From contig OZ220733.1 of assembly GCA_965116875.1 (NCBI GenBank), forward strand, positions 4,672,001 to 4,736,000: 64,000 nt of DNA. Direction: 5' to 3'. A model generated the notes under the pieces. The model saw nothing but the letters and a program-made list of their open reading frames with translations, made no database searches and had not been told where the DNA came from. The first letter of the stretch is position 1; each line of letters starts with the position of its first letter. This document shows positions 37,201-57,692 of this stretch, one piece after another. The stretch is from Candidatus Latescibacterota bacterium (GTDB taxonomy: Bacteria; Latescibacterota; UBA2968; GCA-2709665). The translations under genes and the position numbers were made by a program.

Positions 37201-39657
37201 TTAGAGCGTGCGCGCGGTTTCAACTTGTTCATATGCCTCGATAACATCGCCGAGCTTGGTATCATTGAAATTCTCCAGGCCGATGCCGCATTCAAATCCG
37301 GACTGGACTTCCCTCACGTCGTCCTTGAACCGTCGCAGGGACCCGATCCGGCCCTCGTAGACCACAACACTGTCTCGCAGCACACGCACCATGGCGCTGC
37401 GTGTCATTCGTCCGTTGGAAATGTAACAGCCGGCGATGATGCCAACCCGAGGAACCTGGAACGTCTCCCGGACTTCCGCCGATCCCACGATCTGTTCATC
37501 GATATCGGGCGTGAGCAATCCGGCAAGCGCGGCCTTGATGTCTTCAACCGCCTCATAAATCACCCGGTAGGCGCGGACGTCGACTCGCTCCTGGGCAACC
37601 ACTTCTCGCGCACGGACATCCGGCCGCACATTGAATCCGATAATGATCGCGTCCGATGCGGAAGCGAGCAGAACGTCGGACTCCGACACCGCACCCACCC
37701 CCCGGTGGATCACGTTGATGCGGACTTCGTCGCTGGGGATCTGCATCAGGGAGTCGTGAAGCGCCTCTACGGAACCGTCGACGTCTCCCTTGAGTATCAG
37801 GCGCAACTCCTGGACCTGACCGGCCTTGATCTGATCGTGGATGTCAACCAGGCTGACCCTGCGTATCCGGTGGGCTTCCCGCTCCCGGCGCAGTTGCTGC
37901 CTCTTCTGGCTGATTTCCCTGGCGGTACGTTCGTTTTCCACGGAGTAGAACGAGTCTCCAGCCTGGGGCAGTCCGGACAGGCCAAGCACCTGGACCGGCA
38001 CCGAGGGGCCTGCTTCCGAAACCCGATGCCCTCGCTCGTCCAGAAGCGCCCGCGCCCTGCCGCTGAAGAGTCCGGTGACGAAAGTATCGCCAACCCTCAG
38101 CGTACCTTCCTGCACGAGTACCGTCGCCACGTTCCCGCGGCCGCGGTCCAGGCGGGCCTCGACAATGGCGCCCTTGGCGCGTTTCAGCGAATTGGCCTTC
38201 AACTCCAGCAGATCGGTTTCCAATGCCAGCAACTCGAGCAGATCGTTGATGTTCTCGCCGGTCTTTGCGGAGATCTCACAGGATTGAACCTTGCCCCCGT
38301 ATTCCTCGAGAACCACATTGTGTTCCGTCAGTTGCCGCTTGATTCGATCCACGTCAGCGCCCGGAAGGTCTATCTTGTTGATGGCCAGTACCATTGGAAC
38401 GCCCGCGGCGCGCGCATGGTCGATCGCTTCCACCGTCTGCGGCATGACATTGTCGTCGGCAGCCACGATCAGGACGACGACGTCCGTCACCTGGGCTCCC
38501 CTTGCGCGCATTGCGGTAAACGCCTCGTGACCGGGGGTATCGAGGAAAGTCACCATGCGGCCGTTGTCCAGCTCCACGTGATATGCGCCAATGTGCTGGG
38601 TAATGCCCCCCGCCTCGCCCGCAACCACGTTGGTGTTGCGAACATAATCCAACAGCGACGTCTTGCCGTGGTCTACATGACCCATTATGGTGACCACAGG
38701 CGGACGCGGCGCGAGATCGTCTTCCACGTCTTCGTCTTCATGGTCGAGCACGTCTTCGGCATACTCCTGGAGTTCTTCAACGTCAATTCCGAACTCGTCG
38801 GCAACCAGGGTAATGGTGTCCATATCCAGTCGCTGGTTGATGGTGACCATCAGGCCCAGGGTGAGACACTGCTTTATGACATCGGTAAGCGGAATGTCCA
38901 TGAGCGTGGACAATTCGCCTACCGTTGTAAACTCGTTCACCTTGATGACACGTTCCACGCCCTCTTCGTCCTCGACGTCCGCGTCGTCTCTGCGACGACG
39001 TCGTCGCGAACGGGCCGTCCCGGTTTCCATCTCGGCCATCGTCCGGCGCACGCTGGCTTCGATTTCCGTCTGGTCCGGCGCGGGTCTGCCGCGCCTGCGG
39101 CGGCGACGGCGGCCTTCGCTTTTTTCGGGGGCGGGCTTTTCCTGCGGCCGTGCCGGCTTGGTCTCACTGCGGGTGTCCGCCGCTCCAATGACTTCTACCT
39201 TTGGTTCTCTCCTCGCGGCGTCCCGCCTGCGCCGGCGCGTTGCCTGGTCGTCGCGAATTTCGCGAATCTCGACAGCCTTCCGGACCGGCTCCGCCGGCTT
39301 CGGGGTTTCGGCTGCTTTGGATTCCGTCTTTTTCGCGCTCCCGGCTTTGGCCCTTGCGGGGGCTTTCCGGACTTCCTTTTTTGTATCCTGACGCTGCCTT
39401 CTCTGTGCGGTCTTGCGCTTGATTTCCTGACGGGAGGCGTTACGCTCCTCCTCAAACTTTCCCTGGATGCTATCGAACATCTCCCTGGTGCATACGGCCA
39501 TGTGGTTCTTGACGTCGAACCCCAGTCCCCTGACCACTTCGACCATCGCGACACTCGAGAGATTGAACTCCCGTGCAACTTCGTAGATGCGGCGCTTTTT
39601 GCCATCGGTGTCGTCGGGTGTCGCCGTGACCGTCGCCGCGGGCGCATTTCTGTTCAT
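37201..39657 (-). CDS. infB: Translation initiation factor IF-2
   Basis: [27 protein letters not shown]. Confidence 0.97.
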
Positions 39658-41264
39658 TCGCCGACTCCCCTCCCCTCATCTTCCGGTGGTCCGCCGACCT
39701 GATTGTCTTCAGATGCCGCGGGCTGTACTACCGCGCCGTCTTCCGAAAGCTCGATTTCTTCGTCCGCCGCGGGCTCATTCCCGTCCTCGTCTGCGGCAGC
39801 AACGGCTTCGGCAGTCGCCGCCGCTTCCTCTTCCGCGATACGCGCTGCTTCCTCTTCCGCGATACGCGCTGCTTCCTCCTCCGCGATACGCGCTGCTTCC
39901 TCCTCCGCAAGACGCGCCGCTTCCTCCTCCGCAAGACGCGCCGCTTCCTCCTCCGCCAGACGCGCTGCTTCCTCGGCCCGCTGCTTTTCAAGTTCCTCGC
40001 GGTAGGCCTGAACCTTTACGTTCACGATTTCTTCCGCGGCACTCTGGATTTTTTCTCCGGTGGACTCCCCGACTCCGGGCACTTCGAGCAATCTGACCAG
40101 CGATACATCCACAAGATCGTTGGCGGACAATATTCCGGCGGCCTCGAGACGTTCCAGCATCACCTTCCCCACCCCGGCGACTTCCGACAACGGAACAAAT
40201 GTCGCCTCCTTCTCCAATTGCATTTCCTGGAACCGGGTCTCGGTGATGATGTCGACCTTCCAGCCCGTAAGTTGCGCGGCCAGACGGGCGTTCTGTCCCG
40301 ACTTGCCAATGGCGAGCGACAACTGATCATCGTCGACGATCGCCGTCATCGTCGTTTTGTTTCGATCGACAACCACACGCTTGACCGTGGCGGGACTCAG
40401 CGAACGCGAAAGGAAGATGGCTTCATCGTCGCTCCAGGGAACAATGTCGATCCGCTCGTTGCTCAACTCCCGGACAACCGCCTGGACGCGGGAGCCCTTC
40501 ATCCCCACGCATGCGCCAACCGGATCGATCCTGGCGTCGTTCGAGTACACCGCGATTTTCGCCCTTTCGCCCGGCTCACGAGCGACAGCCTTGATTTCAA
40601 TGACGCCCTCATAGATTTCAGGGACTTCGAACTGAAAAAGCCTGACCACAAATTGCGGATGGGTCCGCGACAGCACCACCTGAGGTCCCTTGGAGGTGCG
40701 GAGGACGTTCACAAGATAGGCTCGGATCGGGTCGCCCTGACGGTAACGCTCCTTGCGAATCTGCTCCTTGAGCGGGATGACCGCCTCCGTGCGCCCCAGG
40801 TTGATGAGAATATCGCCGTGGCTGATCTGCTGGACGGTTCCGCTGATGATTTCGCCGATCCGGGTCTGGTAGTCCTCGTAGATCTTCTCGCGTTCGGCCT
40901 CCCGTACCCGCTGGATCAGGATCTGTTTGGTGGACTGGATGGCATTCCGGCCGAAATCGGCGAACCGGAGCATCTCCCGGATCTCAGTGTTGACCTTGAC
41001 GCCCGGCTGAATCTCCCGGGCAGCCGTAAGACCGATCTGCAAGGCAGGGTCCTCAACCTCATCGTCCTTGACGACGGATTTGGTGGCGAAGACCTCGATA
41101 TTGCCGGAGCTGGCGTCGATATTGACCTCGACGTTGTCCGAGGTGCCGAACCGCCTCTTCGTTGCGGAAAGCAGTCCGATTTCAAGGGTTTCGATAACCA
41201 GCGTCTTGTCGACGTTCTTTTCCTGAGCAATCTGGCCCAGCGCCTCCAGGACTTCGTAATTCAA
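39654..41264 (-). CDS. nusA: Transcription termination/antitermination factor NusA with repetitive acidic C-terminal extension
   Basis: FGRNAIQ, AREPGERAKIAV, DPVGACVG, SLAIGKSGQNARLA. Confidence 0.96.
   Translation of the reverse strand: MNYEVLEALGQIAQEKNVDKTLVIETLEIGLLSATKRRFGTSDNVEVNIDASSGNIEVFATKSVVKDDEVEDPALQIGLTAAREIQPGVKVNTEIREMLRFADFGRNAIQSTKQILIQRVREAEREKIYEDYQTRIGEIISGTVQQISHGDILINLGRTEAVIPLKEQIRKERYRQGDPIRAYLVNVLRTSKGPQVVLSRTHPQFVVRLFQFEVPEIYEGVIEIKAVAREPGERAKIAVYSNDARIDPVGACVGMKGSRVQAVVRELSNERIDIVPWSDDEAIFLSRSLSPATVKRVVVDRNKTTMTAIVDDDQLSLAIGKSGQNARLAAQLTGWKVDIITETRFQEMQLEKEATFVPLSEVAGVGKVMLERLEAAGILSANDLVDVSLVRLLEVPGVGESTGEKIQSAAEEIVNVKVQAYREELEKQRAEEAARLAEEEAARLAEEEAARLAEEEAARIAEEEAARIAEEEAARIAEEEAAATAEAVAAADEDGNEPAADEEIELSEDGAVVQPAASEDNQVGGPPEDEGRGVGE
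39821..39978 (-). repeat. 24-bp tandem repeat (~6 copies) encoding AEEEAAR(L/I) in the NusA tail
   Basis: GCTTCCTC(T/C)TCCGC-n-ACGCGC repeated at a 24-bp period. Confidence 0.9.
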
Positions 41265-41276
41265 AAGGACGTCTCC

Positions 41277-41726
41277 TCAAAAATCAAAATGGAGATTGGC
41301 TTTTCGTATTTCGTCGGCCGCAACGACCCGGGTCTCGCCATCCACCGCGAGCACGAGTTGGGGCCCATCGAATCGAGTCAGCCGACCGATCAGGACGCAT
41401 CCGCCTTCGAGTATTACCCTGACGGTCTGACCGACGGCGCGGTTGTAGTCGCGATCCGACTTCAGGGGTCTGTCGAGCCCGGGCGAGGAGACCTCGAGTA
41501 CGTAGCGCCCGCTGATTGGATCATGAGTATCGAGGACATCGGCGATTCCGCGGCTGAGGCGCGCGCATTCATCTACGGTGATGCCGTCCAGACGGTCCAC
41601 ATCGATGCGAAGCGTTCGGTTCCGGGGACTGCCGGAAAGCTGCAGGTCGACCAGATCCGCTCCCTGGTACTTCAGATAGGGTGCGACCAGCTTTTCGATG
41701 GAGTCCTGCAGTGCCGGATCGTCCAT
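41277..41726 (-). CDS. rimP: Ribosome maturation factor RimP
   Basis: GITVDECARLSR, YVLEVSSPGLDRPL. Confidence 0.95.
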   Translation of the reverse strand: MDDPALQDSIEKLVAPYLKYQGADLVDLQLSGSPRNRTLRIDVDRLDGITVDECARLSRGIADVLDTHDPISGRYVLEVSSPGLDRPLKSDRDYNRAVGQTVRVILEGGCVLIGRLTRFDGPQLVLAVDGETRVVAADEIRKANLHFDF

Positions 41727-41727
41727 A

Positions 41728-41889
41728 GAAGTTGCTTTAATTTTACCGGTGAGTTCCCGAGCGCGAGCGAAAAAGTGGTGGTCAAGCCGGGAAAATCCGC
41801 CCCTATTTGTCTATACGGGTGGGTTTGACCAACGCCGACCGCCGCTTTTGCAGCCGCGCGAAGACCGCTGGGAATTTTAAGACCGCTTC
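41728..41889. mobile_element. 162-bp MITE-like hairpin element, copy 1
   Basis: Imperfect TIRs GAAGTTGCTTTAA...TTAAGACCGCTTC; ATA direct repeat on both flanks; 8 mismatches to copy 2. Confidence 0.8.
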
Positions 41890-41925
41890 ATAATTCCTCA
41901 AGACTCGAATGTGGCCCCTATATTC

Positions 41926-41950
41926 AAAAGAGCGGGCATCCGCCCACTCT
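41926..41950 (-). promoter_or_regulatory. rimP leader hairpin (possible attenuator)
   Basis: Minus strand AGAGTGGGC-ggat-GCCCGCTCT-TTT, downstream of a TATAAC -10-like box (41985-41990). Confidence 0.5.
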
Positions 41951-42022
41951 CGCTATTCAGAAAAATAAATATATGGTATTTCACGTTATAGCGCAAGCAC
42001 AAATTTCCCAACCGGCGCCTGC

Positions 42023-42385
42023 TCACGCGCCTCCGTCGACAAGATGCCTGAGCTCAACCAGCATTCTGCGCATCTCGTCAATGACCTCTTCCGGTCTCCG
42101 GGGTTGCCGGGACCCTGCCGTCTCCGCCTCCACACGGAGATCCCGCCACAGAGAGGGCTCTTCCCTGAGCCTTTCACGTGCCCCTCTGACCGTGTATTTT
42201 TCGTCCTGCCTCAGGCGTCTGATGGCCAGGATGATCTTGATGTCCCGCTCCCGGTAGAGCCGCTTCCCGGCACGGGCGCGCCGGGGCTGGAGCATTGGAA
42301 ACTCCTTCTCCCAATAGCGCAGTACCTGAGGTTCAATACCGGTTCTTTCAGATACATCCCGGATGGAATAGTAAATCCTGTTCAT
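42023..42385 (-). CDS. MerR family transcriptional regulator
   Basis: YYSIRDVSERTGIEPQVLRYWEKEF..GKRLYRERD. Confidence 0.88.
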   Translation of the reverse strand: MNRIYYSIRDVSERTGIEPQVLRYWEKEFPMLQPRRARAGKRLYRERDIKIILAIRRLRQDEKYTVRGARERLREEPSLWRDLRVEAETAGSRQPRRPEEVIDEMRRMLVELRHLVDGGA

Positions 42386-42387
42386 TG

Positions 42388-42549
42388 GAAGTTGTTTTAA
42401 AATTACCGGTGAGTTCCCGAGCGCGAGCGAAAAAGTGGCGGTCAAGGCGGGAAAATCCGCCCATATTTGTCTATACGGGTGGGTTTGACCAACGCCGACC
42501 GCCGCTTTTGCAGCCGTGCGAAGACCGCTGGGAATTTTAAGACAGCTTC
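42388..42549. mobile_element. 162-bp MITE-like hairpin element, copy 2
   Basis: TIRs GAAGTTGTTTTAAAATT...AATTTTAAGACAGCTTC; ~95% identical to 41728-41889. Confidence 0.8.
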
Positions 42550-48013: not shown

Positions 48014-48470
48014 CAACCGTCAATTTACCGCAAAAAGCACAAAAGGCACAGAAGGTTACATTGCGTGAACGAGGGGAAAGGGAATCAAACTACGAATAAC
48101 GCGAATCGACGCGAAAAAGGCTGAAAGGCAGAAAAAAGCATTGGTCAGTGGTCAGCGAGAAAACGGGAGATTCTTCGACTCCGCTCAGAATGACACGTTG
48201 ACCGATAGGCGGGCACGTTGCTTCCCGCTGTCATCCAGAGGAGGCCTGCGCGCGACGCCGGCGAAACATACCCGTTACACGTACTTCCCACTGTCATTTC
48301 CGGAAGACTTGCCCTGAGCCTGCGGTCCCTGAGCTTGTCGAAGAGTCGAAAGATGCGCAGGCCGACGAAGGATCTACTGCAGCATCAGATCAACGGCGAG
48401 CGTCTCCCTATCAGTCTGAACAAAAATGCAGCACAAGCGTTCCTGCTTCGACTTCGCTCAGAATGACATG
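48014..48470. repeat. Cluster of short repeats: AAACTACGAA periodic unit, REP-like TGTCAT.../...AGAATGACA elements, nested CCCTGAGCTTGTCGAAG
   Basis: 48087 AAACTACGAATAACGCGAATCGACGCGAA; CTTCGACT(C/T)CGCTCAGAATGACA at ~48173 and ~48446; 48323 CGGTCCCTGAGCTTGTCGAAG. Confidence 0.75.
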
Positions 48471-49659: not shown

Positions 49660-49702
49660 TGTCGCTTCTCAAATTACGGGTGCGTGAAGTTCGATGAAAG
49701 CA

Positions 49703-49920
49703 AAACTACGAATAACACGAATTGACGCGAATAAGGCGGAAAAGCACGAAACTACGAATATACGAAAAGGCACGAAAAGGCAGAGGCATTAAACTACGAA
49801 TAACGCGAACAAGGCGGAAAGTCACAAACTTCGAAAAAGCGCGAAAAAGGCTGAAAGGCAAAACTACGAACAGCGCGAATAGACGGGAAAAAGGCTGAGA
49901 ATCATCAAAATACGAAAAAA
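49703..49920 (+). repeat. Array of 5-6 AAACTACGAA-led units with internal 9-10-bp CGAA/GGAA periodicity
   Basis: Units start at 49703, 49749, 49791, 49826, 49861 and (degenerate) 49907. Confidence 0.85.
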
Positions 49921-57312: not shown

Positions 57313-57405
57313 GGCGCGCTCCCTTCATAAATTCGTTTCGGACGTGCTGCCTATCGGGTCGGGCTCCGTCAGTGGCATAAGCTCAGATGTCATCCGATGC
57401 CGCAG

Positions 57406-57692
57406 GAGATGCTTCGTCGGCCTGACGGCTTCCTCAGCAAGACAATTTAGCCCGGGCGTGACGTAAGCTCCTCTACTTTCTCATTTTCGACAGAAGGACA
57501 TCGAGGCAGGCAGACAGGAATGTCTGCCCCACCTTCATATAGGCTTCCTGAGCGTGACAGCAATTCGCACCTTAGAAGCTGAAAGGAGTTACGTAGAGTT
57601 GAACTCCCCCTCCGCATCAGCCGTCGCCGGCCCTTCGACAAGCTCAGGGACCGGCTCGGCTTCTGCGACTCCCCCTCAAGGGGTGAGTGATT
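57406..57692. repeat. Cluster of REP-like palindromes
   Basis: 57406 GAGATGCTTCGTCGGCC...; 57509 GGCAGACAGGAATGTCTGCCCCACC; 57633 CTTCGACAAGCTCAGGGACCG nested between two ACTCCCCCTC. Confidence 0.7.

Follow-up and report, generated by a model that had tools for sequence, protein, structure and literature searches.

The rimP locus and the inserted element

The window, by which we mean the whole 64,000-nucleotide stretch that was analysed, carries on its minus strand the gene order rimP, nusA, infB, a DUF503 gene, rbfA, truB, ribF, rpsO and pnp (apart from rimP, nusA and DUF503, these genes were named from their translations). Directly ahead of the rimP start codon lies a 162-bp element between two copies of the triplet TAT, and the features around it are as follows.

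39654..41264, minus strand: nusA, with its own strong Shine-Dalgarno (SD) sequence, -9.2 to -9.3 kcal/mol in 14/14 genomes
41277..41726, minus strand: rimP, an intact gene for 149 amino acids, whose first Met is also where the alignment with the proteins of the relatives begins
41725..41727, minus strand: target duplication TAT, downstream copy; the first two letters of the rimP ATG, A and T, come from it
41728..41744, minus strand: right terminal inverted repeat, A/U-rich and eroded, now directly before the rimP AUG
41728..41889, minus strand: the rimP copy of the element, a MITE (miniature inverted-repeat transposable element), 162 bp, nine differences from the family majority sequence
41873..41889, minus strand: left terminal inverted repeat, 17 bp, GAAGCGGTCTTAAAATT; family form GAAGCTGTCTTAAAATT
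41877..41891, minus strand: mini-ORF M-K-R-S-stop, formed from the duplication together with the left end of the element
41890..41892, minus strand: target duplication TAT, upstream copy
41895..41899, minus strand: displaced SD-like GAGGA, -5.6 kcal/mol with an assumed anti-SD; only 4 nt from the ATG in the reconstructed empty site
41926..41950, minus strand: rimP-leader hairpin, a GGGC...GCCC stem with a U-tract, present in 14/14 genomes and left untouched by the insertion
41968..41996, minus strand: probable native promoter, recognized by eye as TTGCGC-17-TATATT; the relatives have a similar one
42023..42385, minus strand: MerR-family HTH gene (merR), 120 amino acids, SD-less in 14/14 genomes
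42388..42549, minus strand: second MITE copy, with 15/17 terminal pairs, located after the der stop and before the merR ATG

Read on the minus strand, the start region runs GAGGAAT-TAT-[41889..41728, 162 bp]-TAT-GGACGAT, exactly as a preliminary description of this DNA had it, and the mini-ORF that it placed behind the SD (ATG AAG CGG TCT TAA) is indeed present at 41891-41877. This mini-ORF is in the rimP frame and a second in-frame stop lies inside the element; because of these two stops, in-frame read-through from the mini-ORF into rimP was rejected. We also found, as had been claimed, that rimP lacks a linear SD: the best duplex in the 22 nt before the ATG reaches -2.8 to -3.0 kcal/mol (SD scores throughout assume the canonical anti-SD). 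The displaced GAGG would now serve at most a four-codon by-product. The leader hairpin now lies 225 nt from the ATG rather than 49-60 nt, and the candidate native promoter scores under the threshold of the promoter scan. The insertion also made a 9/12 promoter-like match spanning the left junction (TTGAGG-16-TAAAAT, 41901-41874, minus strand; 0.5 such matches are expected by chance in the region).

The second copy of the element, which the preliminary description had overlooked and which is likewise flush against a start codon, lies 660 bp upstream and is 95% identical to the rimP copy (8 differences, E 3e-71); seven of the nine differences of the rimP copy from the family majority are not shared with this neighbor and count as private changes. 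Its flanks read CAC and CAA in the window and CAA and CAA in the relatives L001-L003. This merR-side copy is kept in 4/14 genomes (window 42388-42549, minus strand; L001, L002 and L003 from 9999). In relatives with an empty site, the der stop and the merR ATG are 6 nt apart and translational coupling is likely. The merR-side copy is the better-conserved case for asking if end pairing preserves spacing.

The element belongs to a family of MITEs

Species-representative genomes were scanned with the second copy and merR as one natural frame; this gave 165 loci, of which the best 80 were used, their record titles mostly naming Candidatus Latescibacterota or Gemmatimonadota MAGs. In the 1.54 Mb of loci we detected 105 paired ends, which became 103 after removal of two false long joins and, with five copies recognized by end profile, 108 copies in the window and ten genomes among the best 80 of 165 loci. 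These fall into 84 site groups, one of which (L025/L056) is a false merge, for a true count of 85. The sample is biased, as the anchors were chosen by one-frame protein patterns, which favors open frames and copies before an in-frame ATG.

Copies measure 69-213 bp, with 162 bp in 76 of the 103, and their 17-bp ends pair at 15 or more of 17 positions in 85 of the 100 copies of at least 150 nt. An exact 3-bp duplication flanks 52/103 copies, compared to 0/103 for duplications of 4-7 bp; the duplicated triplet is mostly TAA, TTA, TGA or TCA (TAA and TTA commonest), and at 19/84 sites it is the stop codon of a long ORF. Empty orthologues exist at many sites and are shorter by the element plus 3 bp. 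A MITE is defined as shorter than 500 bp, with terminal inverted repeats, a target duplication, no transposase and many copies (PMC10969869 and the available part of PMC3184786), and the element is one by this structural definition. The preliminary description had called it a MITE, an identification borne out by the 17-bp inverted ends, the 3-bp duplication and the 95%-identical second copy.

The family is most likely an undescribed one that belongs to a known class of element; our literature search found no description of it, and among the papers listed none contained the name of this phylum. No Rfam model matched at its gathering score, and three matches that reached 19-21 bits, where the cut-offs are 50-55, were dismissed as weak. 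In plasmids and phages the element and its ends gave chance matches only (E 0.4-6, none covering the ends), and no partner insertion sequence (IS) or transposase with these ends was found in the 1.54 Mb of loci, in plasmids or in phages. The two long end pairings that were considered as candidate partner IS and then removed (L030, L071) had wrongly joined the ends of separate copies, and the unpaired ends inspected for the same purpose were truncated copies.

One of the six frames of the element is open, and 17 of 39 unselected copies are both frame-preserving and open; among strong hits, the 53-codon open frame matches only other copies. With its duplication the element adds 55 codons. It occurs as an in-frame insert (L023:9999-10160, L049:9999-10160, L064:9996-10157; P0122, P0126) within a gene of the Gp49/HigB-like toxin-antitoxin type and close to the N-terminus of proteins that appear to be secreted or membrane proteins. 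Same-site copies differ by internal modules of 24 and 27 bp (162, 186, 189, 210 and 213 bp, all multiples of three; L001:10659-10844, L002:9999-10184, L003:9999-10208, L055:9999-10187). Neighboring copies share alleles: one at position 48 occurs in both window copies and in 7/98 others, and one at position 145 is confined to the merR/rimP copies of L001-L003, four in all, a pattern pointing to gene conversion, module swapping or local hopping. Short end remnants at orthologous or orphan sites (L015, L049:19442-19466, L075, L008-L010) are consistent with loss by internal deletion. One copy directly abuts the start of a gene whose product has an AadA_C (aminoglycoside adenylyltransferase C-terminal) domain (L050:10163-10900).

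A preference of the family for start codons was considered and found no support: the rimP copy aside, 0/28 unselected sites are flush with an ATG opening at least 90 codons, and the start-flush cases among the anchors were favored by the search pattern. For a weakened right-end allele at start-flush sites there are too few cases.

The rimP site in relatives

Thirteen loci among the best 80 of the 165 carry the orthologous der-merR-rimP region. The rimP site is filled in the window and in L001, where the insert is a 186-bp variant with the same TAT duplication, and it is element-free in 12 of the 13 relatives. The preliminary description had predicted an SD plus the ATG at the empty site and had made its reading depend on finding one; L006 carries it nearly as predicted, reading CTCGAGGATG-ATG, with a length equal to that of L001 minus the element and one duplication and with one mismatch in the last 10 nt. 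The empty arrangement is also seen at the protein level in P0005.

A seven-gene tree (6,031 columns) gave the topology ((L001,(L002,L003)),(L004,window)), then L006 and L005, with support of 100% for the window-L004 pair, 100% for the five-genome clade and 74% for L001 with L002/L003. These sequences fit two histories: a single old insertion, lost in L004 and also in L002/L003, where the GAGG would have gone with it, or two separate hits at the site. Loss in L002, L003 and L004 is probable, and it may mean that the element is mildly harmful. In a more distant genome known at the protein level (P0008), the residues M-K-L before the RimP start are those that open the L001 mini-ORF; they are possibly a 6-bp remnant plus duplication, which would imply an older insertion or a hot spot.

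We found rimP dN/dS values of 0.249 (window-L004) and 0.219 (window-L001), within a range of 0.13-0.33 over 15 pairs; the four comparisons that set filled genomes against their nearest relatives gave 0.22-0.28, although dN/dS is blind to when or how well rimP is translated. By this sequence measure, rimP remains under purifying selection. Thus, the earlier view that the insertion is tolerated agrees with the comparison, as two species-level lineages, whose core genes are 91% identical, carry it with rimP dN/dS at 0.22-0.28.

SD sequences of rimP and of the cluster

Many relatives do without a rimP SD. It is weaker than -3 kcal/mol in 7 of the 12 element-free relatives; among the others, L004 scores -3.0 (AGGG), L006 -5.3 (GAGG) and the outgroup L011 -6.3. 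L002 and L003 have lost the old GAGG through a deletion that moved an AGGGG into range, 12 nt ahead of the ATG (-5.6). The GAGG itself is retained in the window, L001 and L006. Counting against a dispensable SD, the relatives without one are the more distant, and each of the six genomes in the nearest clade retains an SD-like run of some kind. On sequence comparison, the displaced SD is moderate and lineage-restricted.

Within the cluster, SDs are strong at nusA (in 14/14 genomes) and at infB, rpsO and pnp (medians for these three -12.2, -10.6 and -9.3 kcal/mol), and the SD-poor genes are rimP, merR (median -1.5) and the DUF503 gene (median 0). The family lies flush on or at most 6 nt from the starts of merR, rimP and DUF503 in some genome, and at pnp the element in L001 sits upstream of an intact SD. 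Across the family, 16/84 site groups still have a strong SD (-7 or better) ahead of the start and downstream of the element. At seven sites an ATG within 8 nt opens at least 90 codons (five of them Pfam-supported); none displaced a strong SD, and only rimP displaced a moderate one.

Different genomes carry the family at five junctions of the cluster, which makes it unlikely that the element is strongly polar. Further insertions in the cluster lie at the infB/DUF503, rbfA/truB and rpsO/pnp junctions (L012:14954-15140, L006 from 14949, L003:15791-16003, L001:18480-18640), and rbfA/truB also carries unrelated inserts of 172 bp in L002 and 325 bp in L001. The C-terminal tail of NusA carries about eight 24-bp repeats (AEEEAARL/I; window 39771-40010).

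Predicted folding of the element and the rimP leader

All folding results are equilibrium predictions. On the rimP mRNA strand the window element folds at -54.3 kcal/mol (z -1.74; 13 of 200 shuffles as good) and that of L001 has a z of -1.41, whereas the antisense (plus) strand of the window element folds at -74.8 kcal/mol (z -5.71; 0 of 200). The nested palindromes of the preliminary description are therefore strong on the plus strand, from which they had been quoted; on the mRNA strand their G-T pairs become C-A mismatches. The same asymmetry holds for the family, with mean fold energies over 77 copies of 162 bp of -87.2 versus -66.1 kcal/mol for the two strands. In all five Pfam-supported genes whose start lies within 8 nt, it is the weakly folding strand that the mRNA contains, in a sample that is biased that way.

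The isolated element is predicted to close end to end. In the full leader, by contrast, the ends are predicted to pair with a probability of 0.00-0.13 in each of four contexts, and most of the GAGG pairing is with other sequence; terminal pairing is 0.3 in a shorter context starting at the SD and 0.27-0.64 in L001. A bridging stem that leaves SD and AUG free is not predicted in the window and is partly predicted in L001. In sequence, the ends of the rimP copy form 11/17 Watson-Crick pairs (12/17 with G-U, the lowest of 100 copies), compared to 15/17 in L001, and four of its seven private changes lie in the ends, all of them removing Watson-Crick pairs and none compensated. Selection for weaker folding of the rimP copy was considered but did not stand out statistically from random change: 26% of 1500 simulations were no less destabilized, and the four of seven end changes compare with 80 of 292 in other copies.

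Opening the region from -15 to +15 around the AUG is predicted to cost 8.4 kcal/mol in the window, the second lowest value of 14 genomes (range 7.9-18.1). We compared this linear route with a split state, in which the ends pair and the SD acts across them, in a calculation that carries no cost for housing 160-190 nt on the 30S subunit. In the window, linear opening costs 5.4-8.4 and the split state 11.3-15.0 kcal/mol, a near tie (within about 1 kcal/mol) once about 5.5 is credited for SD pairing. In L001, linear opening costs 9.3-13.0 and the split state 10.7-13.6, or about 5-8 after SD pairing, such that the split state is favored by 4-6 kcal/mol after the same credit.

How rimP may be translated

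On balance, and with reservations, we favor a tolerated insertion, with rimP starting SD-independently from the element's A/U-rich end. A non-autonomous DNA transposon, of a family that is common in the clade and has 3-bp T-N-A-like targets, inserted at the TAT overlapping the rimP start, and the reading frame survived because the duplication rebuilt the ATG. Ribosomes would start on the element's right end, which is A/U-rich and poorly paired, much as they would start on a U-rich stretch in the SD-less relatives, and the insertion would have persisted because rimP initiation in the clade seems to depend little on an SD. The genes nusA, infB, rpsO and pnp retain SDs of their own. The hairpin would be a passenger, its terminal stem apparently decayed in the window genome. 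If so, the comparative evidence would explain the unusual placement without a new mechanism.

The preliminary description had instead supposed that folding loops the element out and restores the SD. Such a split ribosome-binding site, with the ends paired, the element bulged out and the SD acting 7 nt (6+1) from the AUG in the window and 6 nt (5+1) in L001, seems unlikely to us, although its geometry is better than the 3-4 nt of the empty site and the GAGG is retained in both filled genomes. Its best case is L001, which tolerates the insertion with 15/17 terminal pairs despite a costly linear opening and in which terminal pairing is substantial and the split state energetically favored; there is, moreover, a precedent in T4 genes 25 and 38, and the isolated element does fold end to end. 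In the window, however, loop-out is disfavored by the near absence of terminal pairing in the full leader, by the lowest number of end pairs of 100 copies and by the lack of an SD in 7 of 12 element-free relatives, even though the split state there ties with linear initiation. The four end substitutions in the window remove Watson-Crick pairs with no compensation, the arrangement occurs in only 2/14 genomes, the T4 precedents bridge 22 and 27 nt rather than 169-192 nt (PMC3014915, in the part available), and other start-flush copies with intact ends (merR, the FGGY kinase gene in L016, and L050) have no SD to bring in. We likewise regard as doubtful the more general proposal that, thanks to end pairing, initiation or translational coupling would survive an insert of 162-186 nt, a multiple of the T4 spans, placed between an AUG and its SD (or an upstream stop, as at der-merR), with L001 as the working case and the window genome as a decaying one. 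Nothing points to the regulatory role that the preliminary description had entertained, nor to excision of the element from the RNA: no group I or II intron core matched in Rfam at the gathering score or at E up to 5, and we rejected such excision as the polymorphism lies at the DNA level.

It is improbable, in our estimate, that rimP is read from a shortened leader, whether by an RNase III- or RNase E-type cut or from a promoter in the right end that would yield a short-leader or leaderless mRNA. RNase III does cut Correia ends and RNase E sites occur in ERIC ends (PMC10969869), but the stem on the mRNA strand is irregular here; two window-specific changes do make a TAAAAT 13 nt before the ATG, but it has no -35 or extended -10, the promoter scan lists none, and L001 lacks the hexamer. 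We give a slighter chance still to the mini-ORF as the driver of rimP, by a ribosome on M-K-R-S that covers the left end and frees the right end and AUG or that re-initiates. In both filled genomes the distance from the SD to the mini-ORF ATG is unchanged from the original, and occupancy would lower the opening cost by 1.3-2.6 kcal/mol in L001, but it would raise that cost by 0.6-1.6 kcal/mol in the window, and the mini-ORF stop lies 150 nt from the rimP AUG across structured RNA. Least probable of all, and very improbable, is that RimP synthesis is strongly reduced and endured or being lost, or that the insertion is an assembly or sub-population artefact. In favor of reduced synthesis we counted the fact that rimP is dispensable, though growth-promoting, in E. 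coli, as well as the probable loss of the element in three of the five clade genomes; against it, rimP is intact and constrained. An artefact is opposed by the filled site in a genome 91% identical in core genes, and the rimP copy is not a collapsed duplicate of its neighbor since it has seven private changes.

A tolerated insertion would make this locus a natural example of MITE survival in a core translation operon, in which the duplicated triplet rebuilds the start codon and elements would persist only where no strong SD is displaced. Together with the window, the relatives offer a natural series, from the empty site through insertions whose ends are intact or eroded to the deleted site, that is useful for asking how large a structure the 30S subunit tolerates between SD and AUG. 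If instead the site were split, the limit would move from about 27 to about 190 nt, and transposons could hide in ribosome-binding sites.

Comparison with known systems

The family resembles Correia/CREE, ERIC, RUP, Nezha and Chunjie elements in having filled and empty orthologous sites, a long predicted stem-loop, a mostly intergenic location and decay by internal deletion. It differs from known prokaryotic MITEs in its G+C-rich core (theirs are A+T-rich), its 3-bp T-N-A-like duplication and a fold that is strong on one strand only. A possible mobilizer would be an IS5-family element of the IS1031/IS427 groups, which share the 3-nt target; the ends of the MITE may resemble IS5/IS1182-type ends. 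No full-length IS with the MITE ends occurs, however, in the 1.54 Mb of loci. The available part of one report gives IS1237 as duplicating TAA (PMC2516522).

In the T4 gene 25 and 38 split sites, SD and AUG are likewise parted by stem-forming sequence, and the effective spacing here would also be 6-7 nt; PMC3014915 describes those sites as bridging 22 and 27 nt, shown by mutation and conserved among T-even phages, whereas the segment here is 169-192 nt, transposon-derived, found in 2/14 genomes and, on the folding models, probably eroding. Rickettsia palindromic elements share with this family a palindromic repeat of about 150 bp, one open frame and in-frame gene insertions (L023, L049, L064, P0122; PMC10969869), the MITE plus its duplication making a multiple of three, but they are unrelated in sequence. 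Unlike Rickettsia elements, the rimP copy makes no fusion protein, as its open frame is not in the rimP frame (two stops). The GGGC...GCCC hairpin and U-tract ahead of rimP-nusA-infB in 14/14 genomes compares with the rimP-leader attenuator (PMC2965389, in the part available) and is the host's own, upstream of and separate from the MITE.

The MITE literature searched (PMC10969869 and the available part of PMC3184786) yielded no case of a copy separating SD and AUG, nor did the articles searched in the open literature (including PMC3049150) yield a MITE between an SD and a start codon. What is available of PMC3196728 adds nothing further to the question.

Other repeats in the window

A second repeat family consists of A-rich degenerate tandem repeats (ACTACGAA / CGCGAA motifs; window 48081-48142 and 49697-49916), which are also found in L002, L004 and other loci. 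Short REP-like palindromic repeats (window 48323-48390, 57392-57424 and 57628-57653) recur in 6-10 other loci. We also observed three duplicated pairs, 51676-51975/55579-55878 (88%), 47060-47163/48496-48599 (83%) and 50632-50751/51395-51514 (71%). These duplicated segments, in a region poor in long ORFs, are probably paralogues of small toxin-antitoxin-like or nuclease genes.
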